64,000 nt of DNA. Source: Gammaproteobacteria bacterium. GTDB taxonomy: Bacteria; Pseudomonadota; Gammaproteobacteria; Eutrophobiales; Eutrophobiaceae. Positions 5,760 through 52,207 of this stretch are shown here, one piece after another. Each line of letters begins with the position of its first letter. Within the stretch, counting starts at the first letter, position 1. The notes under the pieces were generated by a model. It saw only the letters and a program-made list of their open reading frames with translations, was not told where the DNA came from and ran no database searches. Both the position numbers and the translations under genes were made by a program. The stretch covers positions 2,624,001 to 2,688,000 of the forward strand of contig OZ244905.1 in assembly GCA_965221695.1 (NCBI GenBank). Direction: 5' to 3'.

Positions 5760-5804
5760 TGTTCTTTGTTCCTCTGGTTCGCACGCAAGCGCAAGAAACC
5801 CTGC

Positions 5805-9557: not shown

Positions 9558-9570
9558 CGGGAGAGAAATC

Positions 9571-10206: not shown

Positions 10207-10225
10207 AGCTACCTCCTCTACCGAT

Positions 10226-11716: not shown

Positions 11717-11875
11717 AGGTTTATCTTACAGGAATTTATGCGCAACCGATCGATGCCGGCGCCAACTTCAGGACATCCACAGCCAATTCAGGACACCCAG
11801 CAATGTCAGCGCCATCAGAAAATTGTGAGCATCCCGAAATCAAAGGTGTGCTGAATTAGAGATGGATCTCTTACT

Positions 11876-12769: not shown

Positions 12770-12815
12770 GCCGCTTGATCCGATATAGAATGGGCTACAG
12801 AATAATAGCGGAAAA

Positions 12816-29257: not shown

Positions 29258-30124
29258 ATGCGAAGATTGCCCGCTAAACTGATATGGTTCCTGTTGCTGT
29301 GGTGTACGCTGCCTGCAGCGATGGCATGCAGCCTGGCCGGGTTTGCCGAGCATTATATCCAGGCACAGCAGTCCCGGAGCATGGTCGATGACTGTTATTA
29401 TCAGCTTATTGACGATATGGACAAGGCGCGTGTGCTCCAGACCGATGTAATCAGTTTGCTGGATGATGCTTCCCGCCGCGCCGGTTACAAGGTGGGACTT
29501 ACAGATAGCAAAGTTCAGGAAATGTTCGGCATCGCCCGGCCCCTGGTTGGGGTTCTGTTTGAGAACATGCTGCTGCCGGACGGCGCCACGCTGGAACTGG
29601 CTTCCACTACCTCATTGCTGGTAGAGCTGGACCTGCTGGCACGGGTACGGTCGGCGGCAATCAATCAGGCCGGCTCAATCGAAGCTGTGGCAGAGCATAT
29701 CGATGCCATTTTGCCATTCATCGAATTGCCCGACGCGTTGTTCCAGTTGGACCGTGGCAACGGAGCTGCGTTGTTGATGGCGGGCAATGTGGGGGCCAGG
29801 TGGGGTGTGGTCGGCGCGCCCGTTATCGTGGATAATACCCGTGAATTGATCGAATCCCTTCCTGACATGGCCTTGCGCTTATCGGACGACAAAGGACAAA
29901 TCCTACGCACCGGCCACGGCAGTCAAATTCTTGGTCATCCATTGAACTCCGTGCTGTATCTGTTGAAGGAACTGCAACTCAGAAACGATACGATCAAACC
30001 GGGCGACGTGATCAGTCTGGGCGCCATTGGCGGACCGGTAAAAGCGGAACAAGGCCGGCGATACACGGCGCACTACCGCGGCTACGGCGCGACGGATTTG
30101 AGCGTTTCTGTCGTTATACAGTAA
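29258..30124 (+). CDS. 2-keto-4-pentenoate hydratase (FAH-fold)-like protein with predicted signal peptide
   Basis: GYKVGLT, PLVGVLF, ILGHPLNSV, GDVISLG; hydrophobic N-terminus ending AMA. Confidence 0.78.
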   Translation: MRRLPAKLIWFLLLWCTLPAAMACSLAGFAEHYIQAQQSRSMVDDCYYQLIDDMDKARVLQTDVISLLDDASRRAGYKVGLTDSKVQEMFGIARPLVGVLFENMLLPDGATLELASTTSLLVELDLLARVRSAAINQAGSIEAVAEHIDAILPFIELPDALFQLDRGNGAALLMAGNVGARWGVVGAPVIVDNTRELIESLPDMALRLSDDKGQILRTGHGSQILGHPLNSVLYLLKELQLRNDTIKPGDVISLGAIGGPVKAEQGRRYTAHYRGYGATDLSVSVVIQ

Positions 30125-33784: not shown

Positions 33785-34990
33785 ATGTGCGCTGCCGTTG
33801 CTGAAGAAAGACGCTGGGCAAAAACTTATCCCTGGCTGGGGGAAGATCCGGTACCGACCGAACCTTGTATTTCGGAGGACATTTATCACAGGGAGGTGGA
33901 GAAAGTATTCAAAAAAGTCTGGCTGCATGTGGGCCGGGACAATGAATTACCCGAACCGGGCTGCTACAAACTCAAGCGGTTGGAGTTTGCCAGTACCACG
34001 GTGTTATTGATCCGGGGCAAGGACGGCGCGATTCGGGCATTCCATAATACCTGCTCCCATCGAGGAAACACAGTCGTCGTGCCGGAAGGCGAATGGGACA
34101 ACTTTGGGCAGAAAGCGGCCTTCACCTGCCGTTTTCATGCCTGGACCTATAACGACAAGGGCGAGTTAATCGGCGCTCAGGACGAAACCGGTATGCCGCC
34201 GTGTTTCAAAAAGTCAGAAAATGGACTGACTCCCATCCACTGCGATACCTGGGAAGGGTTTATATTTATCAACCTGGATGATAATCCAGCGCAAGGGTTA
34301 CAAGAGTATCTGGGCGCAATGGGCAATCATTTCTCGGGGTTTCCTTACAGCGAAATAGCGCATAATTTTACCTATTACACCTATCTGAACTGCAATTGGA
34401 AGGTGGGGCTGGATGCGTTTGCCGAGGCTTACCATGTGAACACCATCCATGCCGGTTCATTCCCCGGCACGTTTTCGACTGGGTTGCAGATGATTAAACT
34501 ATTGGGCGACCACCGCACCACCGCCGTTTGTTTCAACCCACCCAAGGATGCGCCGCCGGTGGCTGCATTGGCTCAGACCAAGGCGCGCGGATCTTTGGTG
34601 AACAACGTCAGGGAGACGATCCTGCCGCCCAGCTTGAATGACGAAAAACGCGACGATTATGCGTTCGAACTCAGTGTGTTTTTTCCCAACTGGTTGTTGC
34701 ACGTCTCGGAAGGTATCTGGTTCACTCACCAGTTCTGGCCTATCAGTTATGAACGGTGTCTGTGGGAAGGAAAGTATTATGTGATGGAGCCTACCACCAA
34801 CAGTGAAAAATGGGCGCTGGAGCACGCGATGGTATTGCAACGTAATGCCTGGTTGGAAGACACCGCCACAATGGAAGGCACGTTCTATGCGCTCAATTCC
34901 GGCAGCAAAAAATACATGAACCTGCATGATGAAGAAATCCTCGTCAGACATGGTTATCATGTGCTGGAAAAATATCTGAACAACCGCTGA
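33785..34990 (+). CDS. Rieske non-heme iron oxygenase alpha subunit
   Basis: CSHRG...CRFHAW Rieske motif; NWK..DAFAEAYHVNTIH and WLED iron ligands. Confidence 0.93.
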   Translation: MCAAVAEERRWAKTYPWLGEDPVPTEPCISEDIYHREVEKVFKKVWLHVGRDNELPEPGCYKLKRLEFASTTVLLIRGKDGAIRAFHNTCSHRGNTVVVPEGEWDNFGQKAAFTCRFHAWTYNDKGELIGAQDETGMPPCFKKSENGLTPIHCDTWEGFIFINLDDNPAQGLQEYLGAMGNHFSGFPYSEIAHNFTYYTYLNCNWKVGLDAFAEAYHVNTIHAGSFPGTFSTGLQMIKLLGDHRTTAVCFNPPKDAPPVAALAQTKARGSLVNNVRETILPPSLNDEKRDDYAFELSVFFPNWLLHVSEGIWFTHQFWPISYERCLWEGKYYVMEPTTNSEKWALEHAMVLQRNAWLEDTATMEGTFYALNSGSKKYMNLHDEEILVRHGYHVLEKYLNNR

Positions 34991-35000
34991 GGGGGCGGTA

Positions 35001-35342
35001 ATGGCGCAACTGTTACCCGACGGTTTTGCAGAACTGGAAACCTGGGCCAGCGAGTGGGCGAAACCAACACAGAATACCCGCTGGGATAAGCGACTTGCAT
35101 CAACCCGGGGCGATTTAATCGCCTTCTATGAAGCTGTGCTGCCTTATCTGGAGCGCATTCTGCAACATGTCGATGAGTATCCCCTGGGAGAGCTACCGGA
35201 AGCCTCCGCAAGACTGTTTGACCTGGCCTTGATGCATGCGGAAATTGCGCCCAATGTAGAACTGTATGACGGCGACCCGAACGTGCCCCACAGTTTTGAA
35301 GAAAAACGCTTTATTGCGGTGCATGGGGATGACGAACATTAG
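35001..35342 (+). CDS. Small uncharacterised Rieske-associated protein (paralog of 37791-38141)
   Basis: GAGGGGG RBS; clear paralogy to the second copy (LLP..F..LE, W, FYEA.LP, E.AP..ELYD, VP.SF). Confidence 0.8.
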   Translation: MAQLLPDGFAELETWASEWAKPTQNTRWDKRLASTRGDLIAFYEAVLPYLERILQHVDEYPLGELPEASARLFDLALMHAEIAPNVELYDGDPNVPHSFEEKRFIAVHGDDEH

Positions 35343-35416
35343 AAGGTGAATGACTTGCCTGATTTTGACCGATAATATCAGCAATGCCTTGACTGGCCTG
35401 GAAAGGAGGTTCTGTT

Positions 35417-36544
35417 ATGACCATTAAAGCGGATACATACATCCGAATTGATCGAACGCTGCAACTTGGCGATGAGCCGGAGACGGGGCACAACCGTTGG
35501 CACCCGGATATCCAACCGGCTGCAGAAGTTGATCCGGGGCAGATCATCGGCATGGAAACGCGAGATGCTTTTGACGGACAGTTGAAACCGGAAACCACGG
35601 CGAAAGAGGTTGCCGCCACCAATCTGAACCTGGTGCATCCGTTGACCGGCCCGGTTTATATAAACGGCGCGGAGCCTGGCGATATCCTGGAAATCAACAT
35701 TATGGAAGTGGCGCCGGAGCCGTTTGGTTTCACCGTACAGGTTCCAGGGTTTGGTTTCCTGCGCGATCTGTTTACTGAACCTTATATCGTACATTGGGAT
35801 ATCGCCGACGGCTTTGCCATGTCCGCGGACCTGCCGGGCGTAAAGATACCGGGCGCGCCTTTCATGGGCGTGATGGGTAACGCGCCGTCCCATGAGCTAT
35901 TGGAAGAGACCAACCGGCGGGAAGCAGATTTGCAGGCTCGCGGCGGCATGGTATTGCTGCCGGATACCGCCGATGCCGTGCCCAGAGAGTCGGGTATTGC
36001 CGCCAAGGCTATGCGCACCGTTGCTCCCCATGAAACCGGCGGCAACGTGGATATCAAACAGTTGACTGCCGGCACCACGGTGCGTCTGCCTGTATATACG
36101 CCAGGCGCGCTGTTCTCGGTGGGCGATTCCCACTTCGCTCAGGGAGACAATGAAAGCTGTGGCACCGCAGTCGAGATGAGCGCAACGTTTTACGGTTCGT
36201 TCAAGCTGTTGAAAGGAGAAGCGGCCAGACGCAACATCAAGGATATGCAGTTCTACCGGGATGACTACTTTACTGCGCCGGAAATGGCCGTTCCACAACG
36301 GTTCTTTGCCACGACCGGCCAATCCTGCCGCAAAGATGGCGTGGCGGAAGCAGAGGACGCCACCCTTGCGGCGCGTAACGCCTTGCTGAACATGATTGAA
36401 TATCTGGTGAGCGAGCGGGGTTACAGCGAACAACAGGCTTATGCGATATGCAGTGTCGCAGTAGACCTGAGGATATCGGAAATGGTGGATGTGCCCAATT
36501 TCGTGGTGTCCGCGTTCCTGCCTCTGGATATCTTTACAGAGTAA
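35417..36544 (+). CDS. Acetamidase/formamidase (FmdA/AmdA family)
   Basis: HNRWHPDI, HPLTGPV, GGNVDIK, GDSHFAQGDNE, QAYAICS, VDVPN. Confidence 0.92.
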   Translation: MTIKADTYIRIDRTLQLGDEPETGHNRWHPDIQPAAEVDPGQIIGMETRDAFDGQLKPETTAKEVAATNLNLVHPLTGPVYINGAEPGDILEINIMEVAPEPFGFTVQVPGFGFLRDLFTEPYIVHWDIADGFAMSADLPGVKIPGAPFMGVMGNAPSHELLEETNRREADLQARGGMVLLPDTADAVPRESGIAAKAMRTVAPHETGGNVDIKQLTAGTTVRLPVYTPGALFSVGDSHFAQGDNESCGTAVEMSATFYGSFKLLKGEAARRNIKDMQFYRDDYFTAPEMAVPQRFFATTGQSCRKDGVAEAEDATLAARNALLNMIEYLVSERGYSEQQAYAICSVAVDLRISEMVDVPNFVVSAFLPLDIFTE

Positions 36545-36549
36545 ACGAC

Positions 36550-37785
36550 ATGACAATTGTTGCCGATGAATTAGAACAAGCAATGCCGTTCACCACCCGC
36601 TATCCCGAGTTGGGTACGGGTCCTGTGGATGTCAAGCCGCTGATCGACCCGGAATTGTTTGAACTGGAACGGGAACGTATCTTCAAGCAGGCTTGGTTAT
36701 ATGTTGCGCGGGCCGAGGAGCTGGCAGAACCCGGCGACTACAAACTGCGCCGCCTGGATGTGGCCGATACGTCTGTGATTATCGTTCGTGGGAAAGACGG
36801 GCAGGCGCGGGCTTTCCATAACATCTGCACCCATCGCGGCAACAAGCTCATCCCGGAAGCCGGCGCCCAATCTCTGGGCCATACGGCCACGCATACCTTA
36901 ACTTGCCGATTCCATGCCTGGACGTTCAATACCGATGGCGCCTTGCGCGGGGTCGCCCGTCAGGAGAATTTTGCCGGCCTGGATAAATCCTGCCTGGGCC
37001 TGAAACAGATACACTGCGAAGAATGGGAAGGCTTCATCTTCATTAATCTTGCCGAACAACCGCGGCAAACCCTGATCGATTACCTGGACGGCATGGCGCG
37101 CCACTTTGCCGGGTATCCGTACCATGAAGCGACTGTGCGATTGCGCTATTCGACCGTGCTGAACTGTAACTGGAAAGTCGCCCTGTATGCGTTCTCCGAA
37201 GGCTATCATGTTCCGACCATTCATAAGGGCACATTTCCCAGCCTGGCGACGCTGGAACATACCGAGTTCCGGTGCTTTGGTCCTCACAGCAGCTCAGGTC
37301 TGTACGTCCCCCCTGTGCCCGGACTGGAACCGACGCCCGTGACGGCAAACCTGGGTGGCAGGTTGATAATGTCGGCGCGGCATCGGCCTCATCTAGAAGA
37401 ACTGCCGGATAATATCAACCCGGAGAAGCGACAGGATCTCCAGTTTGAATTTTCCGTATTCTTTCCGAATACTGTATTGCACCTGGGCGCCGGTAACGGT
37501 TATCCGGGCATGGCCTATTTTCATCACCAATTCTGGCCCATTGCGGTGGATAAAACCCTTTGGGAAGGCACAAACTATTTCAGAAAGCCGGAAACCGTCA
37601 GCGAACGTGTGGCGATTGCCCATACCAACGCGCTGCACCGCAATGCCTGGTTGGAAGACACTTCGACCATGGAAGACACCTACCAGGCCCTGCGCTCCGG
37701 CGTCCTGGAAGAAATGGTCTTGATGGATGAAGAACTGATGATCAGGAATACCCACAAACACTGGCACGAGTATATGGGGCGCTGA
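36550..37785 (+). CDS. Rieske non-heme iron oxygenase alpha subunit (paralog of 33785-34990)
   Basis: CTHRG...CRFHAW, NWKVALYAFSEGYHVPTIH, RNAWLED. Start MTIV at 36550. Confidence 0.93.
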   Translation: MTIVADELEQAMPFTTRYPELGTGPVDVKPLIDPELFELERERIFKQAWLYVARAEELAEPGDYKLRRLDVADTSVIIVRGKDGQARAFHNICTHRGNKLIPEAGAQSLGHTATHTLTCRFHAWTFNTDGALRGVARQENFAGLDKSCLGLKQIHCEEWEGFIFINLAEQPRQTLIDYLDGMARHFAGYPYHEATVRLRYSTVLNCNWKVALYAFSEGYHVPTIHKGTFPSLATLEHTEFRCFGPHSSSGLYVPPVPGLEPTPVTANLGGRLIMSARHRPHLEELPDNINPEKRQDLQFEFSVFFPNTVLHLGAGNGYPGMAYFHHQFWPIAVDKTLWEGTNYFRKPETVSERVAIAHTNALHRNAWLEDTSTMEDTYQALRSGVLEEMVLMDEELMIRNTHKHWHEYMGR

Positions 37786-37790
37786 TTGTA

Positions 37791-38141
37791 ATGAGGCCGA
37801 CGACCCTGCTGCCTGAACAATTCTCTGATTTGGAACCTTTTGTCGGAATCTGGGCCTTTCCCACCGAGTTGCAGCGCTCCCAACAACGCTGGGCCGCAAC
37901 CCCGGATGATTACCGGCAGTTCTATGAAGCTATGCTGCCAATGCTGGACGAGATACTGACATACCTCGACCAATTCAAACCGGGTGAAATCCCGTCCTCG
38001 GCCTTGCCTCTATACCACCTGACCCTGGCTTTTGCCGAAACGGCGCCTCACAACGAACTGTATGACTGCAGCAATACAGTCCCAAACAGTTTTGCCGCCC
38101 ACCGGTTCGTGGCCGGACACGGGGAAATCCCGGACCGATAA
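37791..38141 (+). CDS. Small uncharacterised Rieske-associated protein
   Basis: Starts 5 nt after the Rieske stop; paralog of 35001-35342. Confidence 0.8.
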   Translation: MRPTTLLPEQFSDLEPFVGIWAFPTELQRSQQRWAATPDDYRQFYEAMLPMLDEILTYLDQFKPGEIPSSALPLYHLTLAFAETAPHNELYDCSNTVPNSFAAHRFVAGHGEIPDR

Positions 38142-40227: not shown

Positions 40228-41577
40228 GTGGATATGACCACAATGGCGACGAAAGAAGTTCCGTTAAGTCCCGTACAAAAACAGTGGTATGAAACAGCTT
40301 GCAGCAAAATTGACCTGGAGCGGCTGAAGCAGTTGATCTTTGACCTGACTGCAAAACACAGTCCCACCGGCGCCGAACGGGAAGCTTGTGAATTCATGAC
40401 TGACTACCTGAACAGCGTCGGGATCAAGGCCTGTTACCAGCCCATCACGGAGATTTCCGGCAACTGCTACGGTCGGGTAAAAGGATCGGGAGACGGCCCC
40501 ACGCTAATGTTGTATGCGCCTATTGACACCTTGCTGGAAGGCGACCCGGATAAAGACATCCCCCATGCCGGGCCCGAACACCGGGCAGATATGCGCCCGG
40601 AACCCTATATTGACGGCGACCTGGTAATCGGCTTGGGCGCTTCCAACCCGAAATCCATGGTTGCCTTGCTGACCGAAGCCCTGACCTGTGTGGTGGAGGC
40701 TGAGGTTGACCTCAAGGGCGATGTGATCATTGCCACGGCTGGCGGCGGCATGCCCTGGATCGCGCCGGAGCGTAACCATGCCGGCATCAGTAACGGCGTT
40801 AACCACCTGCTGTCCCATGGCGTGACCGCGGATTTCGGCGTGATCTGCAAACCCTGGGATGATATTTACTATGAGCACCCAGGCATGGTGTGGTTCAAGG
40901 TAACCGTATGGGGCACCATGGGTTATGCCGGCATTCCCCGCGGTGTGCCGGGCTTTCGCAGCTCGATCGTCCCCGCGGCAAAGGTGATCCTGGACTTGGA
41001 GGAATGGTTGATTGAATACCCGGACAAACACACCAGCGACCAGGTCAAGCCCCAGGGTTGGATCGCCGCTTTGCGTTGCGGCTGGCCGGACAAACCGGCC
41101 TTCCCCGGCGCGGCAACCGAGATCTGGCTGGATGTGCGCACCAGTCCGCTGCAGAAGGCCGCGGAGGTGGAGCGGGAATTTGACCAGGTAATGAAAGACA
41201 TTGCAGCCAGGCACACTGACGTGGACGCGCAATGGGAAACCATCGTCACCTGCGACGCGTCAGCAACCGACCCGGAGCACTGGGTGGTGCAGTCGGCGCT
41301 GCGCGCCTGGAGTGAAGTGCATGGCGAACCCTATCCCGGCGCCCCGCACATGGCGGGACAGACCGACGCCGCCACCATCAACCGGACTGGTTTCCCACTG
41401 GTGCGTATCGGTTATACCTGGCTGGGCGAAAAAGACATGCCGGCGGAATTCACTGAAGGTCTTGGCGGGATGGGCGTTGCCTGCATCCCCGATTTGGAGA
41501 ATACCATCAAAGAAGCGATCTATACTGTCATCGATTCCTGCACCCGCACTCGTGAAGAAGTCGGGTTGGCGGATTAA
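40228..41577 (+). CDS. M20-fold protein resembling 5-nitroanthranilate aminohydrolase (NaaA), with substituted metal ligands
   Basis: SPTGAE, G.G.GPTLMLYAPIDT, IGLGASNPKS, LKGDVII; overall ArgE/DapE-type layout. Confidence 0.75.
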   Translation: MDMTTMATKEVPLSPVQKQWYETACSKIDLERLKQLIFDLTAKHSPTGAEREACEFMTDYLNSVGIKACYQPITEISGNCYGRVKGSGDGPTLMLYAPIDTLLEGDPDKDIPHAGPEHRADMRPEPYIDGDLVIGLGASNPKSMVALLTEALTCVVEAEVDLKGDVIIATAGGGMPWIAPERNHAGISNGVNHLLSHGVTADFGVICKPWDDIYYEHPGMVWFKVTVWGTMGYAGIPRGVPGFRSSIVPAAKVILDLEEWLIEYPDKHTSDQVKPQGWIAALRCGWPDKPAFPGAATEIWLDVRTSPLQKAAEVEREFDQVMKDIAARHTDVDAQWETIVTCDASATDPEHWVVQSALRAWSEVHGEPYPGAPHMAGQTDAATINRTGFPLVRIGYTWLGEKDMPAEFTEGLGGMGVACIPDLENTIKEAIYTVIDSCTRTREEVGLAD

Positions 41578-42047: not shown

Positions 42048-42368
42048 TCATGCAGGTTTCAGGGTGACGTAGATATACCCGTCGTCGCCCAATCGGGTTT
42101 CATATTTGTCAAGAGGGATAACACAGGGAGGGTCGACCGGGTCTCCAGTCCGGATGTCGAATGATCCTTCGTGAAAAGGGCAGATTATTTCGTCTCCCCT
42201 GATGTCGCCGTCGGACAGGTACGCCTGGCCGTGGGTACAGATGTCGCTGGTGGCAAAATATTCCCCTTCCAGGTTGTAGATGGCCACCGCTGTGTCATCT
42301 TCCAGGTAGAACTGCTTGACAGAGTTGGTCTCGAACTCGGTATGCTTTATGGTTTTTTCTTCCGCCAT
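42048..42368 (-). CDS. Rieske-type [2Fe-2S] ferredoxin (CarAc/BphF-like)
   Basis: ICTHG...ICPFHEGSFDIRTG. Start MAEE at 42368. Confidence 0.92.
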   Translation of the reverse strand: MAEEKTIKHTEFETNSVKQFYLEDDTAVAIYNLEGEYFATSDICTHGQAYLSDGDIRGDEIICPFHEGSFDIRTGDPVDPPCVIPLDKYETRLGDDGYIYVTLKPA

Positions 42369-42369
42369 A

Positions 42370-42984
42370 TTAATTCGACGGGTCATAGGTTTCAAAGCGC
42401 AGAGGCGTGGGCCGTTCGCCGTTCACCACTTCCGGCCAGGCGCAGACTGATACCATCCAGGTAAGGTCCATTTCCGCCCGCAGTTCAATATAGTCTCCTG
42501 CCCTGGTAACGGGTTGGTCGATGAGCCACTCTCCCTCGGGTGTATAGTTGACTGTCATGAAGATATTGAAGCAGGAAACGGATTGCAGGTAGTTCGGGTC
42601 GAACCCGAGCTTGCGGTATTCTTCTTGAATGGTGTCCCGGCAACCGTTGCCACCGGTATTGAGGTACAACCGGCGCGCGGCATTGGAACAAAAACCGCCG
42701 CCGGTATAGTGGTTGGCGGTCTTGTCGCTGGTTATTGTCCACATATCATTCATCAGGTTGCTGCGAATAGTGTCGCCTTCCCGCCAATGATAACGGCCAT
42801 GATGCCAGCTCGTGTATACACAATCCTGGAACTCTGCGGGGTCGCCGTATTTGACTGCGACGAAGTCCGCAACCTGTTGTCCCTCAATATCGATAATTCT
42901 CAGTGATTGTCCTTTCCTGATATGTCCGTGGCTGCCCGTGTGCGGCGGAATCGTTGCTGTTTCGATCAGTTTGGCTTTACTCAT
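42370..42984 (-). CDS. DUF1989 / urea carboxylase-associated family protein
   Basis: GQSLRIIDIEGQQVADF, G.CS...GCRD, FNIFM, AGDYIELRAEMDL..VSVC. Confidence 0.85.
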   Translation of the reverse strand: MSKAKLIETATIPPHTGSHGHIRKGQSLRIIDIEGQQVADFVAVKYGDPAEFQDCVYTSWHHGRYHWREGDTIRSNLMNDMWTITSDKTANHYTGGGFCSNAARRLYLNTGGNGCRDTIQEEYRKLGFDPNYLQSVSCFNIFMTVNYTPEGEWLIDQPVTRAGDYIELRAEMDLTWMVSVCAWPEVVNGERPTPLRFETYDPSN

Positions 42985-43808
42985 TGCTCCTCCAGGTGAA
43001 ATTCCACCACCGCGCCGCCGCTGCCGTAAAGAGGGCCGTAAGCGTGCACTGTGGCGTTACTGAAGCGGCCGCCCATGGCGCCCAGGATAAAGGCGAAGTG
43101 TTTGAATCCCATGTCCACCCGCGCCGCGCCGGCGTAATCGGGACAGGCCTTTGCCAGCGCTTCCGTATCGCCCTGTTCCATCATGGATAGTATCTTCTTG
43201 TTCCATTCATCTTCTGCGGCATCGGCGATTTTGTCTTCGCTGATATCGATGATATGGCGATAGATGGAGCCTGACAGGCCGCCGACGCCGATGACAGCCA
43301 GTTTTCGGCCCAGTTCCGCGGCAGTTTCGGCCGCGACCCGCCCAAGGGATTCGGTCATCTGCCAGTCGTGGTAGACGTTATTGGAAGTGATAGCCAGAGG
43401 TATGACTCCGCCCGGGTTCATGAAATTCGAGGCAACGATGGAGCCGGTGTCCACGGGGAAGTGATCATAGTCAACGCCCTTGGCCTTGATCCCGGCCGCT
43501 GCTGTCTTCTTCAGCGCCAGCTCGGCAAATTCGATATCGATCTTCATGTCGAATGGCAGGTCGCCGTATTCATGCCAGTTCTCGTCTACATGCAGGCCGC
43601 GCAGGACAGGCCGGGTTTGCCATAGCTGGTCGAGCACCGCGATCCACTGGGTGGAATAGATGGCGATCAGGTCCGGCGACGAGGCTACAAGGGCCTTGCC
43701 GGCGGTTTCCATGGCCGTGGCGATATCGCCCCAGGGCGGATTGTCCCGTTGCATGTGAGGAAGCGGGGAACCAGGCACGAGAAATGCGGAGACGACGCTC
43801 ATTGGCAT
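42981..43808 (-). CDS. amnA: 2-aminophenol 1,6-dioxygenase alpha subunit
   Basis: VVSAFLVPGSPLP, YSTQWIAVLDQLW, HVDENW, ARVDMGFKH, GPLYGSG; LigB fold, adjacent to amnB. Confidence 0.92.
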   Translation of the reverse strand: MPMSVVSAFLVPGSPLPHMQRDNPPWGDIATAMETAGKALVASSPDLIAIYSTQWIAVLDQLWQTRPVLRGLHVDENWHEYGDLPFDMKIDIEFAELALKKTAAAGIKAKGVDYDHFPVDTGSIVASNFMNPGGVIPLAITSNNVYHDWQMTESLGRVAAETAAELGRKLAVIGVGGLSGSIYRHIIDISEDKIADAAEDEWNKKILSMMEQGDTEALAKACPDYAGAARVDMGFKHFAFILGAMGGRFSNATVHAYGPLYGSGGAVVEFHLEEQ

Positions 43809-43809
43809 C

Positions 43810-44736
<927 letters not shown>

Positions 44737-44739
44737 TCA

Positions 44740-45162
44740 TTATTCAGGTTTATAGGCAATGGCCTTTATTTCTATCAATAACTGCGGGTGTGGCAACTGA
44801 TGCACGGCGACCGTGGTACGGGCCGGGCCGTGATAGTCGAACACCTCTGCATAGACTTCATTATAGCCCGCAAAATCATTCATGTTGACAAGAAAAGCCG
44901 TAATTTCAGTGAGGTCTGCCAGTGTTGCGTCAAAGCTGGCCAGGATATCGGCGATGTTATCCAATACCGCCCGGGTTTGCGCCCGGATGTCCAGGTCGTA
45001 TGTGCCCATGTCATCCACAACCCGCGCGCCGATGACGGTGTTGTCGGCCTGTCTTGCGCTGGCGCCGGAGATGAAGATGTAATCTCCGGCGCGCCGGGCA
45101 TGGGGATACTTGCCGCGAGGAGTGGCTTTGCTCTCCAATACTTTTGCTTTGCAGCCGGTCAT
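44740..45162 (-). CDS. amnD: 2-aminomuconate deaminase (RidA family)
   Basis: [38 protein letters not shown]; immediately upstream of amnB. Confidence 0.88.
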
Positions 45163-45208
45163 AGTCCGTCTCTGAGTCAAATGGTTGTCAATTCACGCAC
45201 CGGGCGCG

Positions 45209-46474
45209 TCAGTCTCGTCTGAAGTAGCCGCGGGTATGGTCTTTGGTCTGAATGCCGCGCGCATGTTTGCTGGCAAACCGGCGCCACATGGTCAGTTCGA
45301 CATCCGGTTGGAACAGTCGTTCCCGCTGCCAGCCGTCTTCCTCGGCGTAGTACTTATGTAACTGCTCCCTGGCAAAGGCGTCATCCACGGTAAAGCCTTC
45401 CACTGCCGGCACCTCCCACATGATTCTGCCATCCTCACCCAACCAGCGTTCCGCTTCCTCTTCATCGTCGGTATGGATTACGCCGAACTGAAAATAGGTG
45501 TGTGCGTCCTTGTTTTTTGGCGTGTAGAACTCGTAGTGAGTGCACTGGGGCGCGGGGAACGTGGTGACCTTAAGCGAACAAGGCATCCAGAGTCCGACGG
45601 TGCCGAGGCGAATGATATCGGTTAATTGCGCCAGCTCCTCCGGTGACTTGCCTCTTGCGAGAGGCAAAACCAGGTCCTTGCGCCCGCCGTCCCGCAGCGG
45701 TATGGATGCTTCGTGCTTGAATTCCGTTTTCTCCACCTTGCGGGTGAAGCCTTTCGGGCCGTCTTCCCGCTCAACGTAGCGGGTTGTGTCCAGCACCGCT
45801 TCCTTAGTGGAAGTATAACCGTAGGAGGTGTGCATGCCGGCATTGATGCACATCTCGGACCAGTTGTGAATGAACTGGTGGCCGGGGTCGTAACCATTCT
45901 CACAACCCAGCCGCCAGTTGGCATTGATGTCGTAGGGTTCGCCGCAATAGACTACGGCATTATCATCCAGCAGTCCGGGGGCAACATCATAATGCAAGGG
46001 TGGCGGCTCAATATCGCCCACGAAGACGAACACGATGCCTTTGCGTTCCTCAACCGGATACACCTTGGCGCGGCATTTGCCGATCATCTTCGAGTCGGGT
46101 GAACTGAGTATGGTGCGCAGGCTGCCGTCCTCCAGGTCAAAGGTCCAGGTATGATACCAGCAGGTCAATGTCTCCTTCGTATAAAACAGAGGGCGCGCCG
46201 AGAAGCGGATGCCGCGATGAGGGCATCGGTCTTCCAGGGCATAGAGCTTTCCATTCTGGCGAGTGAGCAGGATTTCTTCTCCCAGCAATTCAATCCCTTT
46301 TGCATCGCCCTCACCTAAGTGGCGCGACAACGCCGCCGGATACCAGTAATTGCGAAATCCCCACTCCGCGTCAAGCCATACCTGCCAGGGCTTGCGCGCC
46401 CGCGCCGCTTTCGTCCGGGCTTGTTCCACCTGGTCCTGGGTCTCTTCCAGCAGGGTGCGGGTTATCTCGCTCAT
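45209..46474 (-). CDS. Rieske oxygenase alpha subunit, carbazole 1,9a-dioxygenase (CarAa) / 2-oxoquinoline 8-monooxygenase (OxoO) family
   Basis: GFRNYWYP, DRCPHRG...TCWYH, NWRLGCENGYDPGHQFIH, GFTVDDAFARE. Confidence 0.9.
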   Translation of the reverse strand: MSEITRTLLEETQDQVEQARTKAARARKPWQVWLDAEWGFRNYWYPAALSRHLGEGDAKGIELLGEEILLTRQNGKLYALEDRCPHRGIRFSARPLFYTKETLTCWYHTWTFDLEDGSLRTILSSPDSKMIGKCRAKVYPVEERKGIVFVFVGDIEPPPLHYDVAPGLLDDNAVVYCGEPYDINANWRLGCENGYDPGHQFIHNWSEMCINAGMHTSYGYTSTKEAVLDTTRYVEREDGPKGFTRKVEKTEFKHEASIPLRDGGRKDLVLPLARGKSPEELAQLTDIIRLGTVGLWMPCSLKVTTFPAPQCTHYEFYTPKNKDAHTYFQFGVIHTDDEEEAERWLGEDGRIMWEVPAVEGFTVDDAFAREQLHKYYAEEDGWQRERLFQPDVELTMWRRFASKHARGIQTKDHTRGYFRRD

Positions 46475-46528
46475 GTCAGTTTTACAATGATCAGGAATAT
46501 CTCTGATGTAATCCGCGCCGCCAAAAGA

Positions 46529-47395
46529 TCACTTCAGCAGGTACTCGATATGCGCCTTGTTGAACGCTTCCGGTTCTTCCCATTGTGGCCAATGGGCGGA
46601 GTTTTCCAGCACCACCAGTTCACTGTCGGGAATCAGCGCGGCGCCCTGTTCCGCCAGTGGCACAAGCTGTCCCGGGTTGTAACGAGTCCATAATACCAGA
46701 GTGGGGCAGGTCAACTGTTGCAGCAACGCCGGGCTGTACCATTTTTCCTGCTCGACCGGGTCCAGCAACGCGCCGATACTTTGTTCCGCTATCTTTCTTA
46801 TCACCGCGGCGCGGCCTGGTTGCCGGTAGATCCGGTAGCGAACTTCGACGATCTCATCGGTCACGTCCTCGTCGCGGCGCATCAACCAGCGCATGCGCTG
46901 GCGCACTGCTTCCCGGTCCGGCGTGCCGGTGGCTTTGCGGCTGCGCTCCAGCAGATCTCTTAATTCTTCGGCGCCTGCCTCGTCCGGCGGCAGCATCATA
47001 CCGGTATTCATGACGATCTTGTTCACTCGATCCGGATGTTGCAGGGCAAACCAGGAAGCGACCGTTGCGCCCAGCGATTCACCGGATATATGCGCCTTGT
47101 CTGCGCCGATGGCATCAAGGAAATCTTTCATGAAATCCACGTAGCATTGCATATCATAGCTGAGCGCCGGGGCGTCGGTGTAACCGTGACCCACCATGTC
47201 GATGGCATAGACATGAAAGTGTTTTGCATGCGCCTCGATGTTCTTCAGATAGGCCTCCGCGTGGCCGCCGGTGCCGTGCAGCAGTGCCAGGACCGGACCC
47301 TCGCCGGCTTCAATAACGCGTGTCCTGACGTTGCCGGCATTATAATAGCTTTGCTTGAATGCTACTCCCTGCAAGTGATTCCAGATACTTGTCAT
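46529..47395 (-). CDS. Alpha/beta hydrolase, probable meta-cleavage-product hydrolase
   Basis: LHGTGGH, GESLG, AHWPQWEEP. Confidence 0.85.
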   Translation of the reverse strand: MTSIWNHLQGVAFKQSYYNAGNVRTRVIEAGEGPVLALLHGTGGHAEAYLKNIEAHAKHFHVYAIDMVGHGYTDAPALSYDMQCYVDFMKDFLDAIGADKAHISGESLGATVASWFALQHPDRVNKIVMNTGMMLPPDEAGAEELRDLLERSRKATGTPDREAVRQRMRWLMRRDEDVTDEIVEVRYRIYRQPGRAAVIRKIAEQSIGALLDPVEQEKWYSPALLQQLTCPTLVLWTRYNPGQLVPLAEQGAALIPDSELVVLENSAHWPQWEEPEAFNKAHIEYLLK

Positions 47396-47412
47396 AGTTT
47401 TCTCCTGTGTTG

Positions 47413-47442
47413 GAGGAACTTCTGTCTGACCAGAGCTTCCTC
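47413..47442. repeat. Degenerate collapsed copy of the IS5-like element
   Basis: GAGGAACTTCTG-TCTGAC-CAGAGCTTCCTC. Confidence 0.55.
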
Positions 47443-47473
47443 TATCAGTCTGAAACGCAACACGCGTAGCCTG

Positions 47474-48466
<993 letters not shown>

Positions 48467-48540
48467 TCAGCGGATTCCCGTAATTGCGGGAGTGGCATGA
48501 TTTGATCAGCGTTAATCTGCATCATCTGCGGATGATTCTG

Positions 48541-49452
48541 TTACCGTTTATGCAGTTCACCGCCAGACGTCAGTTCAGGGGGCGGCACATGTTCATGGCC
48601 CCAGATCTTCGGGGAGTTGTAAAATTTCGGTTCCCAGTCGGCATCATCGATCAGGCGCGCGCCGTGGCCGTACTCGATCCACCAGCCGGAAGGAGAATAA
48701 ATATAAAACGACATCATATGGTCATTGCTATGCCTGCCCAGGGTCAAGGCCAGCGGCACATTGTGTTCGTGCACGATGTCATAGGCGCGCCCGACGTCAT
48801 TCAAGGACAGGCTCTCGAACATGAAATGGCCCAACTCGCCGGGTTTCATGCCGCCAACCGGGTTCATGAAAGCCAGGCTGTGGTGGCGGGGATTGCAATG
48901 CAGGAAGGTTGCCTGAATATCATCCCAGAAGATATGGTCGCTCAGTCGGAAACCCAGGTGGTCTTCGTACCACTTTACCGAGGCCATGCGGTCGGCCGTC
49001 GCCAGCACCAGGTGCCCCATGCCCAGGTCGCCGGTATTGTAGCCCTCCATGCCGCGCTTGGGCGCAAACGGTTTGAAGTCCTGAACCGGCCCGAAAAAGA
49101 TCTCCAGGGGAATCCCATCAGGGCCTTCCACCACGAACAAGTCCATCACCGCGCGCCGCTCGCGCAACTCGGGGCTACCCGGTTCCACCGCAATGCCTTT
49201 GTCGTCCAATTCGCCAGCCAGCCGGTCCAAGTCACCCTGGAACTCCACCTCCCAGCCGATGTATTTCAATTTGTTGTGGTTCGATTTATGCAAAGCCAGC
49301 CTGTGGTGATTATCATCCATGCGGTATTGCCGGGTTGTTTGCCCGCTGTCAGCGCGCCGTTCCAGTCCGTAAACGGTATCCAACAGCTTGTCCCAGGCGT
49401 TAAAGTCCGTCACCTCACAACCGATATAACCAAGACCCTTGATTTTTGACAT
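48541..49452 (-). CDS. Type I extradiol ring-cleavage dioxygenase (BphC/HsaC-like)
   Basis: GMGHLVL, FLHCNPRHHSLA, LGRHSND.MMSFY..SPSG..IEYG. Start MSKI at 49452. Confidence 0.93.
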   Translation of the reverse strand: MSKIKGLGYIGCEVTDFNAWDKLLDTVYGLERRADSGQTTRQYRMDDNHHRLALHKSNHNKLKYIGWEVEFQGDLDRLAGELDDKGIAVEPGSPELRERRAVMDLFVVEGPDGIPLEIFFGPVQDFKPFAPKRGMEGYNTGDLGMGHLVLATADRMASVKWYEDHLGFRLSDHIFWDDIQATFLHCNPRHHSLAFMNPVGGMKPGELGHFMFESLSLNDVGRAYDIVHEHNVPLALTLGRHSNDHMMSFYIYSPSGWWIEYGHGARLIDDADWEPKFYNSPKIWGHEHVPPPELTSGGELHKR

Positions 49453-49485
49453 GCCGCATCTCCTCCTTTCAGTCAATTCTTGTGG

Positions 49486-49573
49486 TTAAGGAACCCCATA
49501 ATCAGAAGCTCCCACGTTACAGGGATGCGCGCTCTCTGACAAGTCCGGAATGAACTTGTTCAGCGCCTTCCCA
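49486..49573. mobile_element. Internally deleted copy of the IS5-like miniature element
   Basis: TTAAGGAACC...ACGTTACAGGGATG...CTCTGACAAGTCCGGAATGAACTTGTTCAGCGCCTTCCC aligns to both halves of 26378-26533. Confidence 0.7.
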
Positions 49574-49578
49574 ATGTA

Positions 49579-50190
49579 TCAACTATCGGAAAAATGCCGG
49601 TGGATACTCTCAACGGCCGCATTGATGGATCGAGCCCGTTCCTGTTCTCCCCAGGCAAGACCTTCCGCATCGAAATAAACAACATCGCTGATACCGATAA
49701 AAGCAAAAATCACGTTCAGGTAAGGGCGTAGATGATCCATGTCTGTGTCCTTGGACTTGCCGCTGCTTGCCGTGCATATATATACTTTCTTGCCTCCGCA
49801 CAGACCTTCCAGGTTGCCGTTCGCAACCCGGCGAAAGGTCTTGCCTGGCCTGACCACGAAATCTATCCAGGCTTTCAGGCTGGCCGGCACATTGAAATTG
49901 TACATGGGGGCGCCCAACACCAAGGTATCTGCTGACAATAACTCTTCCGTCAGCGTATCCGAAGCAGCCAGCGCAGTGATTTGCGCCGCCGTCCGCTCCG
50001 GCGGCGGCGTAAAAAACGCTTCTGCCTCCGTGTTGTTTACCGGCAGCGGGGCGCTGGCGCCCAAATCGCGGCGAATCAGCCGCAGCGACGGTTCAGCTCT
50101 GATGAGTTGGTCAACCACACCCTGCGACAGCTTGCGGCTGATCGAATCGCCGGCGCGAGCGCTGCAATCGATATGCAATACCGTGCTCAT
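49579..50190 (-). CDS. azoR: FMN-dependent NADH:azoreductase / quinone reductase
   Basis: SARAGDSISR, APMYNFNVPASLKAWID, FIGISDV..AEG. Confidence 0.88.
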   Translation of the reverse strand: MSTVLHIDCSARAGDSISRKLSQGVVDQLIRAEPSLRLIRRDLGASAPLPVNNTEAEAFFTPPPERTAAQITALAASDTLTEELLSADTLVLGAPMYNFNVPASLKAWIDFVVRPGKTFRRVANGNLEGLCGGKKVYICTASSGKSKDTDMDHLRPYLNVIFAFIGISDVVYFDAEGLAWGEQERARSINAAVESIHRHFSDS

Positions 50191-50211
50191 GGCCTGCAAG
50201 CTATCCTGCTG

Positions 50212-51501
50212 TTATCTCCGGAAATGTCCCCTGGTATGTTTTTCCTCCTGGATGCCGCGGCAATGCTCGCCGGCAAATACCCGCCACATCAGCAGTTCAA
50301 TGTCAAAGCGCGCGGTTTGTTCCTGGTTCCAGCCGTCTTCACTGGCGTAGAACTCATGGATATATTCCCGGGCCTCCGCATCCTGCACGGTAAAGTCATC
50401 GACCACGGGAACTTTCCAGCGCACCTGCCCCAGGTCGCCTTCGGCCCATTCGCTTGCCTGTTCCTGATTTTCCACCCGTCTCCAGCCGCATTGGAAATAG
50501 TAGTGGGAATTGGCATCGCGAGGAACGTAATATTCGTTGTGTACCACACCCGGGAACGGCCACGGATTCACCTTCAGCCCGCAGGGCAGCCATTCGCCGA
50601 CTTCAGTGGTGAACGCGTGCTGGCCCAGGAGCTCTATTTCTTTGGGTGATTGACCTTTGGCGATGGGCAGGATGACATCCGTATCACCAGCGCCGTTGCG
50701 CCCGGGAATTTTTGCGGTCATGGACATATTGGTTTCTGCCGCTAACCGGGTAAATCCCTTGGGCCCGCTCTCCATCAACTCATAAATACTGGTCTCCAGC
50801 ACAGCTTCCTTTTTCGAGACCCAGCCGAAGGTCATGGGTATGCGTGAATTAATGGAAAATTTCGACCAGTTATGAATGTAATGATGGCCCGGGTCATAGC
50901 CGCCTTCGGAACCCAAGCGCCAGTTCGCGTTCACCAAGTAGGGGTCAGCCACGCATATCGCCACATCTTCATCAAAAAAACCGGGGGGCACGTCATGCTC
51001 CAAGGGTGGCGGCGGATTCATATCGCCGACGAAGGTAAAGATCACACCTTTTTCCTCCCGCACCGGGTAACTCTTAATTCCCTTGCGCCCTGCCAGAGAA
51101 GAGTCCGGGTCATTCAACAGGCAGCGGATACGGCCGTCGTCAAGGTTGAAGGTAAAAGCATGATGCCAGCAGGTAATGGTATCGTCCGTGTAACAGACAG
51201 GGCGTTTGGAGAAACGCGTGCCGCGGTGGCTGCAGCGATCCTCTATCGCATACAGACGCCCACCACGGCGCAGGTACAGAATATCCTCTCCCAACAGCTT
51301 GATGGCCTTGTGTTCACCGTTCCTGATATTGCGACTGGCTTCCGTCGGATACCAGTGATTGCGAAAACCCAGTTCCGCCTTGAGCCAATTCTTCCAGGGT
51401 TTTTCTGCTGTGGCAGGGTCGGCCCCCTCAAAATCAAAATCCGGAACATACGCCGCAGTGCGCTTCATCAGGTCCAGCGCGATCTCGTTGAACTTGCTCA
51501 T
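50212..51501 (-). CDS. Second CarAa/OxoO-family Rieske oxygenase alpha subunit
   Basis: LGFRNHWYP, DRCSHRG...TCWHH, NWRLGSEGGYDPGHHYIH, FTVQDAEARE. Confidence 0.9.
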   Translation of the reverse strand: MSKFNEIALDLMKRTAAYVPDFDFEGADPATAEKPWKNWLKAELGFRNHWYPTEASRNIRNGEHKAIKLLGEDILYLRRGGRLYAIEDRCSHRGTRFSKRPVCYTDDTITCWHHAFTFNLDDGRIRCLLNDPDSSLAGRKGIKSYPVREEKGVIFTFVGDMNPPPPLEHDVPPGFFDEDVAICVADPYLVNANWRLGSEGGYDPGHHYIHNWSKFSINSRIPMTFGWVSKKEAVLETSIYELMESGPKGFTRLAAETNMSMTAKIPGRNGAGDTDVILPIAKGQSPKEIELLGQHAFTTEVGEWLPCGLKVNPWPFPGVVHNEYYVPRDANSHYYFQCGWRRVENQEQASEWAEGDLGQVRWKVPVVDDFTVQDAEAREYIHEFYASEDGWNQEQTARFDIELLMWRVFAGEHCRGIQEEKHTRGHFRR

Positions 51502-51584
51502 GCCTTAACCCCATCATTTTGTATGAAAGCGAAGTATAACACCTGTGGATAATGAAAGAACCTGACATAACGGGCCGTCTTTCA

Positions 51585-51625
51585 GGCGACATAGTATTCG
51601 ACTGGACTCCCACTTCCGTGGGAGT
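51585..51625. repeat. REP-like repeat, second copy
   Basis: GGCGACATAGTATTCGACTGGACTCCC-ACTTCCGT-GGGAGT resembles 4884-4925. Confidence 0.6.
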
Positions 51626-51681
51626 AGTGCGGAGGCGGTGTTCAAGCAAGCGCTGTCAGGCAATTTTAGATTGAATAACTA

Positions 51682-52122
51682 CTATTTTCCGGCAAGCTCC
51701 GCGGTGAGCCGGGTGAAGAAATCGTTGGCCAGCTTCCTGGTGGTGGAAGCCACCAGTCTGGAGCCTACCTGGGCCAGTTTGCCACCCACGGAAAATTCCG
51801 CCTGGTAGCGAAGCCTGGTGAATTCGACTTCCTGGCTCAACTGAACTTCCGCCCTGCCTTTGCCGAAACCGGCGCCGCTTTTTCCTTCCCCACTCAGTGT
51901 ATAGGAATAGGGCGCATTGATACCGGTTACTGTCAACACGGTTCTGAAACGGGTTTTCACCGGGCCGTACTGTGCGACGATCAGGCATTCAAAGCTGTTT
52001 TCTCCGGTCTCTTCGATACTCTCACAGCCGGCGATACAGAGCTTCAGCATAGCCGGATCATTCAGAGCTTGCCAGGCTTTGTCAATGGCACAGGGCAGCA
52101 GGTGTTCGCCTTCTATAATCAT
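51682..52122 (-). CDS. coxG: CoxG-like SRPBCC accessory protein of molybdenum hydroxylases
   Basis: W.ALNDP..L..CI.GC, GGKLAQVGSRLV, FF. Confidence 0.88.
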   Translation of the reverse strand: MIIEGEHLLPCAIDKAWQALNDPAMLKLCIAGCESIEETGENSFECLIVAQYGPVKTRFRTVLTVTGINAPYSYTLSGEGKSGAGFGKGRAEVQLSQEVEFTRLRYQAEFSVGGKLAQVGSRLVASTTRKLANDFFTRLTAELAGK

Positions 52123-52207
52123 GTGTCTATCATCATCTGGCGTTTAAACGGCGCCGTAACCAGGTGAAAAATATGTCATTGCCTTGGACTGATCAAATAT
52201 ATTCTGC

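Follow-up and report, generated by a model that had tools for sequence, protein, structure and literature searches.

We analysed a stretch of 64,000 nucleotides (nt), hereafter the window, from the genome of an uncultured marine Gammaproteobacteria bacterium (GCA_965221695.1, contig OZ244905.1, positions 2,624,001-2,688,000 of the forward strand). Positions below are those of the window unless another locus or the genome is named. At 42048-52122 the window carries a putative catabolic island in which CarAa-like Rieske oxygenases stand next to genes for the cleavage of 2-aminophenol. The list of open reading frames (ORFs) and the Pfam, NCBIfam and PDB matches give twelve genes here, all on the minus strand. 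In order of transcription they are coxG, ox2, azoR, edo, trxB, hyd, ox1, amnD, amnB, amnA, a DUF1989 gene and a ferredoxin gene (fdx), with intergenic gaps of −26 to 180 nt. Both the order and the gene families agree with a preliminary description of this DNA. A further gene, unk449, lies nearby on the plus strand. The features are as follows.

51682-52122, minus strand: coxG, CoxG-like SRPBCC protein (PF06240, 90 bits), first gene of the block
50212-51501, minus strand: ox2, CarAa-like homotrimeric-type Rieske oxygenase (PF11723 and PF00355)
49579-50199, minus strand: azoR, AzoR-like FMN-dependent NAD(P)H azo/quinone reductase (PF02525, Flavodoxin_2, 143 bits)
48541-49476, minus strand: edo, two-domain type I extradiol dioxygenase, BphC-like (196 bits to 1han)
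47474-48427, minus strand: trxB, thioredoxin-disulfide reductase (TIGR01292, above the cut-off)
46529-47395, minus strand: hyd, alpha/beta hydrolase of the meta-cleavage-product (MCP) hydrolase type (PF00561)
45209-46474, minus strand: ox1, CarAa-like homotrimeric-type Rieske oxygenase (PF11723 and PF00355)
44740-45180, minus strand: amnD, 2-aminomuconate deaminase of the Rid family (174 bits to 6izh)
43810-44715, minus strand: amnB, catalytic beta subunit of 2-aminophenol 1,6-dioxygenase (554 bits to 3vsg_B)
42981-43808, minus strand: amnA, alpha subunit of 2-aminophenol 1,6-dioxygenase (326 bits to 3vsg_A)
42370-42984, minus strand: DUF1989 protein (PF09347, 123 bits)
42048-42395, minus strand: fdx, Rieske-type [2Fe-2S] ferredoxin (PF00355, 58 bits)
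40228-41577, plus strand: unk449, divergent NaaA-like metallohydrolase of the M20 family, 449 amino acids (feature search and PDB relatives)

A scan for promoter-like sites (13 found, 7.7 ± 3.2 expected) and terminator-like sites (10 found, 11.2 expected) was uninformative on operon structure.

The products of amnB, amnA and amnD appear from their scores to be near-canonical 2-aminophenol cleavage enzymes, which upholds the identities first given to them. Over almost its full length, AmnB matches 3vsg_B, the beta subunit of 2-amino-5-chlorophenol 1,6-dioxygenase, and also 8ihg_A (552 bits). It is the only copy in the genome, where the one further tblastn match is 22% identical and lies at 2.81 Mb. 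AmnA scores 312 bits against 8ihg_B in addition to its match to 3vsg_A, likewise along nearly all of its length, and AmnD reaches 76 bits with the next Rid protein after 6izh. The near-canonical scores of AmnB and AmnA argue against an alternative that we considered, in which AmnBA takes the place of CarBaBb.

The two oxygenases are less closely related to characterised enzymes. In comparisons with solved structures, ox1 scores 292 bits against CarAa and 224 bits against OxoO, and ox2 scores 281 and 158 bits. They are 49% identical to each other and 38% (ox1) and 36% (ox2) identical to CarAa of pCAR1. The Rieske Cys/His ligands and the 2-His-1-Asp iron site (His183, His187, Asp333) are intact in both, as is Asp180. 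Of the residues that presumably form the carbazole-binding pocket, a list we take from the structural literature on CarAa, G178, L270, V272, E284 and F329 are kept in ox1/ox2. Six others are changed in both, towards more polar residues (F179Y, I184Q/H, A259L/T, I262V, Q282H, N330T).

We built a FastTree phylogeny of 66 rows, comprising ox1, ox2, four other PF11723 paralogues, two plasmid CarAa sequences and every second database match of at least 370 amino acids. In this tree ox1 and ox2 belong to two sub-clades of a 51-row clade, whose members carry automatic labels and no experimental names, and CarAa falls in a separate 15-row clade; the split has a local support of 100. The preliminary description had called the oxygenases CarAa/OxoO-like and had looked to a tree with both enzymes for their placement. 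The CarAa part of that placement is given by the split; the tree contains no OxoO sequence, and OxoO was compared by scores alone. Orthology to either enzyme is not borne out. A separate clade, an identity of 36-38% and the lack of CarBaBb-type partners speak against CarAa orthologues, and the higher scores to CarAa speak against OxoO. We thus regard ox1 and ox2, from their sequences, as members of an uncharacterised sister clade of carbazole dioxygenase. The clade is scarce: when 400 genomes were sampled evenly over the class, one gave a match at E ≤ 1e−90. PicB of the picolinate pathway was also rejected as a relative of ox1/ox2, since it is a classical four-component alpha/beta oxygenase according to the available portion of its description (bioRxiv 10.1101/530550).

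The genome encodes six PF11723 genes in total, an unusual expansion of the family. The other four lie at C1:245319-246461, 289347-290516, 1631957-1633195 and 1708720-1709862. With an identity of 52%, the gene at 245 kb is closer to CarAa of pCAR1 than ox1/ox2 are, and the gene at 1.709 Mb adjoins a CarC homologue (51% identity).

The remaining genes of the island can be assigned at the level of the family. The ferredoxin is 34% identical to CarAc of pCAR1 and is the probable electron carrier for ox1 and ox2; candidate reductase genes lie elsewhere in the genome, one of the BphA4 type (1.72 Mb) and one resembling CarAd (190 kb). Among solved structures, edo is closest to 1han, a 2,3-dihydroxybiphenyl 1,2-dioxygenase. 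With 285 bits to TIGR03213 (cut-off 366), edo is a member of this family at large and falls below the BphC equivalog. It is the sole enzyme of its type in the genome, the only other extradiol-type match by tblastn being 24% identical at 197 kb. The best solved relatives of hyd are MCP hydrolases, first 4lxg (90 bits), which is labelled as such and which we take to be DxnB2, then HsaD, CumD, CarC (27% identical) and BphD. A GxSxG motif at 105 and a His-Trp pair at 268, presumably the catalytic His followed by Trp of MCP hydrolases, agree with an MCP (C-C) hydrolase. In nearly all loci hyd immediately precedes ox1. The azoR gene begins 12 nt after ox2. Its product belongs to the Flavodoxin_2 family and lies below the NCBIfam azoreductase models (68.9 bits, cut-off 188).

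No Pfam match was found for unk449, nor any Pfam M20 model at E ≤ 0.01. In a feature search it resembles M20 clusters (0.98), and its sole solved relatives are structures of 5-nitroanthranilate aminohydrolase, NaaA (5k8p and 5k8m; 72 bits over residues 32-395). Like NaaA (5k8m-5k8p), which acts on an aromatic amine, unk449 is an M20 protein; the similarity is low. The gene lies directly before edo-hyd-ox1 in two related loci (L013 and L018).

The preliminary description had treated these genes as a unit, and they are indeed conserved together. Of 30 loci found with ox1, 11 have the ten genes from coxG to amnA arranged as here, although L025 retains only part of ox1. Three further loci are collinear up to the end of the contig, and L016 has nine of the ten genes. 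The grouping is not due to chance, because so many loci share one order and three more follow it as far as their contigs reach.

The pattern of losses divides the block into two parts. Among 22 other species of the genus, amnB occurs in 21, full-length ox1 in 15 and ox2 in 17. Beyond the genus, amnB was found in two of 14 other genera of the family and in none of 24 other families sampled. Five species of the genus (G005, G008, G010, G017, G019), with genomes 94-98% complete, lack both ox1 and ox2. An edo orthologue was not found in any of these five, nor were orthologues of unk449, for which there were only paralogues of 27-29% identity. Four of the five keep amnD-amnB-amnA, in three cases with trxB directly upstream, and the borders of the deletion are different in each. 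In the three reduced trxB-amnDBA loci neither azoR nor DUF1989 was found by tblastn. On the other hand, coxG is retained in two of three examined genus members without oxygenases (L043 and L044), so it is not tied to the oxygenases. In one genome (G001) ox1 alone is missing.

The distant loci, with ox1 of 75-89% identity, consist of hyd-ox1 only or of unk449-edo-hyd-ox1, with no amn gene nearby. All five distant genomes with the ox1-hyd(-edo) module encode an amnB elsewhere (81-87% identical) with amnA beside it, against a class-wide background of amnB in 2 of 399 scored genomes. Every examined genome with a close ox1 orthologue therefore has amnB (15 with full-length ox1 in the genus and five outside it); the reverse is untrue. 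A dependence of the oxygenase module on Amn would produce such a pattern. From the losses, the co-loss and the distant loci, the block appears to consist of an upper module (ox2-azoR-edo, hyd-ox1, unk449 and probably DUF1989) and a separable amnDBA module. In this arrangement unk449, which the preliminary description had not included, is a probable member of the upper module, and DUF1989 probably belongs there too. An oxygenase/extradiol/hydrolase module feeding AmnBA and AmnD, as first suggested, fits both the co-loss and the co-occurrence.

A scan of metagenomes with the ox1 alignment used generic Rieske motif patterns; 4 of 80 kept loci were close relatives (L065-L067 and L072) and six were examined. 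In three remote loci (L067, L071 and L074), whose genes were annotated by similarity to genes of the window alone, homologues of unk449 are grouped with homologues of the oxygenases and of the alpha/beta hydrolase. Since these three genes stay together in such remote loci, the oldest core of the system would seem to be an oxygenase with an M20-like and an alpha/beta hydrolase. In one of them (L067:1699-13258) an ox1 homologue (56%) is accompanied by two isochorismatase-family genes, a hyd homologue (37%), an M20-like homologue (36%) and a 1077-amino-acid gene for which we found no solved relative.

The strict co-orientation of the twelve genes is a derived feature. In all 13 related loci holding all three genes, fdx and DUF1989 are on the opposite strand to coxG, and DNA alignments show that 42992-52127 is inverted in the window relative to its relatives, an inversion of 9.1 kb. 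The junctions are:

42985-42991: left inversion junction; homology switches strand between 42984 and 42992
52128-52200: right inversion junction, between the coxG start and the leuA upstream region; alignments stop at 52127 and resume at about 52200

The left junction runs through the final amnA codons and the DUF1989 start codon, and this explains why the DUF1989 start and the amnA stop overlap by 4 nt, here only. Contigs from three runs in three studies (X1, X2, X3) span both junctions and show no differences there; one of these runs may come from the source sample. The single string of twelve co-oriented genes first described is therefore real in this genome, and is the derived product of a lineage-specific inversion. 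No inverted repeats at the junctions were among the eight pairs reported. In relatives, a 382-amino-acid gene with a metallo-beta-lactamase fold lies between amnA and leuA (L003:13491-14639); it is missing in the window. Another locus (L001:13785-17439) additionally holds an inserted DDE transposase, a nucleotidyltransferase-like gene and a RES-domain gene. The amnA-leuA site is a rearrangement hot spot. Elsewhere in the block, only a fragment of ox1 is left in G003 (L048); it contains a TAA, and an insertion of about 2 kb separates it from hyd. In G009 (L046/L011) ox1 has been relocated and lies about 2 Mb from the other genes.

One gene of the string is probably not a pathway gene. The trxB product scores 399.5 bits against TIGR01292 (cut-off 343), carries the CATC redox motif and has no second copy, the complete 3.54-Mb genome yielding no other thioredoxin reductase match. 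We therefore read trxB as a probable resident housekeeping gene. The motif and the single copy also led us to reject trxB as a thioredoxin-reductase-like ferredoxin reductase. The gene stays directly upstream of amnD in genus members that have lost the oxygenases. Around trxB in five other genera the synteny of the window is not kept, save for a homologue of the amidase that adjoins trxB in G028. Both facts suggest that its position is historical: most simply, trxB was there first and the catabolic genes were added around it. Its place among the twelve genes of the preliminary description thus stands, and a role for it in the pathway is improbable.

The genes needed to take the products of AmnBA further are found elsewhere. 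The window holds no AmnC-type dehydrogenase and no 4-oxalocrotonate branch, and in this it departs from a canonical amn operon. At 793.9-800.4 kb of the genome, 1.8 Mb away, lies a dmp-type operon (dmpC-E-F-G-H-type) encoding a 2-hydroxymuconic semialdehyde dehydrogenase (862 bits), 2-oxopent-4-enoate hydratase, acetaldehyde dehydrogenase, 4-hydroxy-2-oxovalerate aldolase and 2-oxo-3-hexenedioate decarboxylase, all above the NCBIfam cut-offs. It is preceded by genes for a GntR regulator and a TonB receptor and followed by transporter genes and genes for a 748-amino-acid iron-sulfur protein (4Fe-4S domains), an HpaB-like hydroxylase and an intradiol dioxygenase. No gene for an extradiol dioxygenase adjoins it. 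Across the genus, amnB and the semialdehyde dehydrogenase go together: both are present in 19 genomes and both are missing from G010, and the two genomes with amnB only are 83-88% complete. Because the operon has no extradiol dioxygenase of its own, other matches in the genome are weak and the dehydrogenase tracks amnB, AmnBA is the most plausible supplier of muconic semialdehyde to the dmp-type operon. The hyd product, either 2-hydroxypentadienoate or 2-hydroxymuconate, could also enter there. The operon is part of a string of minus-strand genes (C1:779718-800408; L041, L059) that also includes Ycf48-like, RND, DUF1302 and DUF1329 envelope genes and a DsbA-like gene.

We tentatively propose that the island is a composite catabolic locus whose uncharacterised route frees a 2-aminophenol from an N-aromatic compound of two or three rings, a reading that we think quite possible, though somewhat short of probable. 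The identities of the genes are established, as are their synteny, co-loss and co-occurrence and the integrity of the catalytic residues; every chemical step and the substrate class we infer. In this route, ox1 and ox2 would receive electrons via the Rieske ferredoxin and a reductase encoded elsewhere. The oxygenase would attack the bi- or tricyclic N-aromatic beside a bridging heteroatom, candidate substrates being a diaryl amine, a diaryl ether or a phenoxazine-like compound. The edo product would open the resulting catechol ring, and hyd, the M20-like enzyme or both would hydrolyse the fission product (a ketone, ester or amide) to give 2-aminophenol. AmnBA would convert 2-aminophenol to 2-aminomuconate semialdehyde, the dehydrogenase of the dmp-type operon would oxidise it and AmnD would then remove ammonia to yield 4-oxalocrotonate. 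From 4-oxalocrotonate and 2-hydroxypentadienoate, the remaining enzymes of the dmp-type operon would form pyruvate and acetyl-CoA. Candidate roles for AzoR are the reduction of a quinone-imine form of the substrate and the recovery of aminophenol that has auto-oxidised; alternatively, it may be an electron donor to the ferredoxin.

One of the two options in the preliminary description was an angular attack on a phenoxazine-type ring, followed by meta-cleavage and hydrolysis. The logic of this option matches the proposed route in kind, and edo and hyd resemble the BphC/MCP-hydrolase pair of biaryl and dioxin pathways; nothing points to phenoxazines specifically. In its most detailed form, the proposal would have these marine symbiont-type Gammaproteobacteria open phenoxazine/phenoxazinone-like, hydroxylated diarylamine or diaryl-ether natural products by angular attack. 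AzoR would first reduce the quinone-imine, the NaaA-like M20 enzyme or the MCP-type hydrolase would cleave an amide or ester to give 2-aminophenol for AmnBA, and a molybdenum-hydroxylase (Mo-hydroxylase)/maleamate-type module, described below, would remove picolinate that forms spontaneously out of the product of AmnBA. Taken as a whole, this detailed version is improbable.

Several observations weigh against the composite route. The block holds no reductase gene and no regulator, both hyd and edo are under every NCBIfam equivalog cut-off, and the route does not account for the roles of coxG, DUF1989 and AzoR. The amnDBA genes stand alone in six genomes (L042-L045, L049, L050), including two other genera, and so Amn would appear to work on its own. 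The ox1 module lies apart from amnBA in each of the five distant genomes, and one genome (G400) has three ox-like genes (48-59% identity) and no amnB at E ≤ 1e−80. In the remote loci L067, L071 and L074 we found no extradiol dioxygenase and no amn genes within 10 kb of the oxygenase homologues, and for that reason the ancestral reaction of these oxygenases may not have been a CarAa-type angular attack. The genomes compared are also related, and are not independent samples. The functional link between the upper and the amn modules is accordingly a putative one, drawn from comparative genomics only.

An alternative is that the island holds two independent pathways that happen to be neighbours in a catabolic region prone to rearrangement. 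One, formed by the oxygenases, edo, hyd and the M20-like enzyme, would produce an aromatic acid and 2-hydroxypentadienoate from a biaryl-like or amide-bearing aromatic compound, and amnDBA would use 2-aminophenol or aminophenolic metabolites from the environment. The genomes with amnDBA and no oxygenases, the unlinked modules of the distant genomes and the ox-like genes of G400 without amnB all agree with this, as do the housekeeping trxB that splits the block and the surrounding 20 kb, which is full of other uncharacterised catabolic genes. The history of the region, with its inversion, a transposase insertion, the relocation of ox1 (G009, L011) and the ox1 pseudogene (G003), points the same way. 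Against it, amnB is present in all 15 genus members and all five outside genomes with a close ox1 in spite of its rarity in the class, the modules are contiguous and co-oriented in the 11 loci with the full block, and the genome offers no other consumer of an aminophenolic product. On balance we hold two separate pathways to be rather unlikely.

The second option of the preliminary description was a lactam or quinolone-type route. Here a Mo-hydroxylase would form a 2-oxo N-heterocycle, an OxoO-like hydroxylation would take place beside the ring nitrogen, and an amidase or the M20 enzyme would open the lactam to a substituted o-aminophenol for cleavage by AmnBA. The Mo-hydroxylase is part of a module at 4926-12835, which also holds a FAD_binding_2 flavoprotein and a deacetylase-like gene:

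4926-5759: alpha/beta hydrolase of the module, flanking the Mo-hydroxylase
5805-9557: Mo-hydroxylase, CoxS/M/L-like
9571-10206: isochorismatase-family gene of the module (246 bits to 3ot4/3uao)

The large subunit of the Mo-hydroxylase is present in 13 of the 22 genus members, and these 13 are all among the 17 that bear the oxygenases and none among the five that lack them. In 8 of the 14 genomes holding it (G000 included) it lies 38-66 kb from ox1. The appreciable similarity of ox1 to OxoO, the adjacent amidase and M20-like hydrolase, and the remote loci L067, L071 and L074, where oxygenase homologues stand beside homologues of the module's alpha/beta hydrolase and isochorismatase-family gene, would also be in line with such a route. 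Yet both oxygenases are closer to CarAa than to OxoO, four oxygenase-bearing genomes have no Mo-hydroxylase, edo and hyd would be left without a job, and the Mo-hydroxylase is 33 kb away in a module of its own. The isochorismatase-family gene matches 3ot4/3uao, which we take to be the maleamate amidohydrolase NicF, and this suggests that the module is for a nicotinate- or picolinate-type pyridine-ring pathway. The module thus has an explanation of its own, and we consider the lactam route distinctly improbable. Given the distribution of the large subunit and the remote loci, the module and the island may still be connected; a link by picolinate removal is speculative, and picolinate is listed as a product of 2-aminophenol degradation in the available portion of bioRxiv 10.1101/530550.

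A role in detoxification and not in growth, with the island disarming redox-active quinone-imine, phenoxazinone or phenazine-type compounds of the habitat, AzoR and thioredoxin reductase protecting the cell from quinone-imine and thiol stress and ring cleavage removing toxic aminophenol, would suit the tight link of azoR to ox2 across its 12-nt gap, the sole trxB inside the block in all close relatives and the auto-oxidation of 2-aminophenols to phenoxazinones, but is just as improbable as the lactam route, given that a complete route to central metabolism exists, which fits catabolism, that the position of trxB looks historical from its persistence after oxygenase loss and from the amidase homologue beside it in another genus, and that the block has no efflux gene or stress regulator.

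The composite route has parts in common with several known systems. The car operon of Pseudomonas resinovorans pCAR1 (gene order as seen in NC_004444.1; we take the genes to be carAaAaBaBbCAcAd) also joins a PF11723 alpha3-type Rieske oxygenase and a Rieske-type ferredoxin to extradiol cleavage and an alpha/beta hydrolase, and the catalytic ligands are identical. It differs in that the island has a type I BphC-like enzyme in place of CarBaBb, no CarAd-type reductase in the block, and amn genes downstream instead of anthranilate genes. We found no match to CarBa in the genome and a single one to CarBb (28%, at 680 kb). OxoO (1z01) shares the Pfam family and fold class of ox1/ox2; it is more distant from them than CarAa, and the island has no OxoR-type reductase alongside.

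The amn clusters are represented by those of Pseudomonas sp. AP-3, where the order is reportedly amnBACFEDHG, and by the cnbCaCb genes of Comamonas (3vsg). The cluster of Burkholderia xenovorans LB400 is given as amnRJBACDFEHG in the available portion of its description (PMC3790839). As in these, amnB is followed by amnA in the island, and AmnB, AmnA and AmnD are close homologues. The island, in contrast, holds only amnD-amnB-amnA in that order; AmnC, the decarboxylase, hydratase, aldolase and acetaldehyde dehydrogenase are outside the cluster, and its upstream genes are Rieske oxygenases in place of nitroreductase or mutase-type genes.

For dibenzo-p-dioxin and dibenzofuran, Sphingomonas wittichii RW1 is said to use an angular dioxygenase, DbfB and the DxnB hydrolases. 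Like the proposed route, its pathway leads from angular dioxygenation through BphC-type cleavage to a hydrolysis that frees the second ring. The RW1 oxygenase, however, is of the alpha/beta type and not PF11723, catechol is released instead of aminophenol, and the similarity of hyd is low (90 bits to 4lxg).

In a full-text search of the literature that covered open journals and main texts (subscription journals and supplementary files lay outside it), we found no characterised pathway joining CarAa-type oxygenases with amn genes, nor any joining phenoxazine with angular dioxygenation. This supports the novelty first claimed for the combination: the enzyme families are known, and their combination is uncharacterised and is conserved across a genus of uncultured bacteria.

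The 20 kb around the island are dense in other uncharacterised catabolic genes. At 33785-38141, a formamidase lies between two gene pairs for Rieske oxygenases of the alpha/beta type, in which the alpha subunits (401 and 445 amino acids) are each followed by a gene for about 110 amino acids; an SRPBCC gene and an amidase come next. All are under the NCBIfam cut-offs. Genes of this segment adjoin ox1 in the distant locus L018. Further away are a 512-amino-acid ORF without a Pfam match (22515-24053) and a 288-amino-acid ORF with a weak FAA-hydrolase/DmpE-like signal (29258-30124; TIGR03220, E = 8e−12).

The modular losses and rearrangements of this region are a clean natural experiment on which genes belong together. 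If the composite route is right, it would be a new entry into the amn pathway, so far mainly known from nitrobenzene and aminophenol pollutants, and it would give a function to a large unnamed clade of oxygenases. Should the angular attack on a phenoxazine-type compound be true as well, this would be the first complete mineralisation route for such N,O-heterocycles. For the bacteria themselves, the composite route would imply a natural N-aromatic substrate in marine host-associated habitats.

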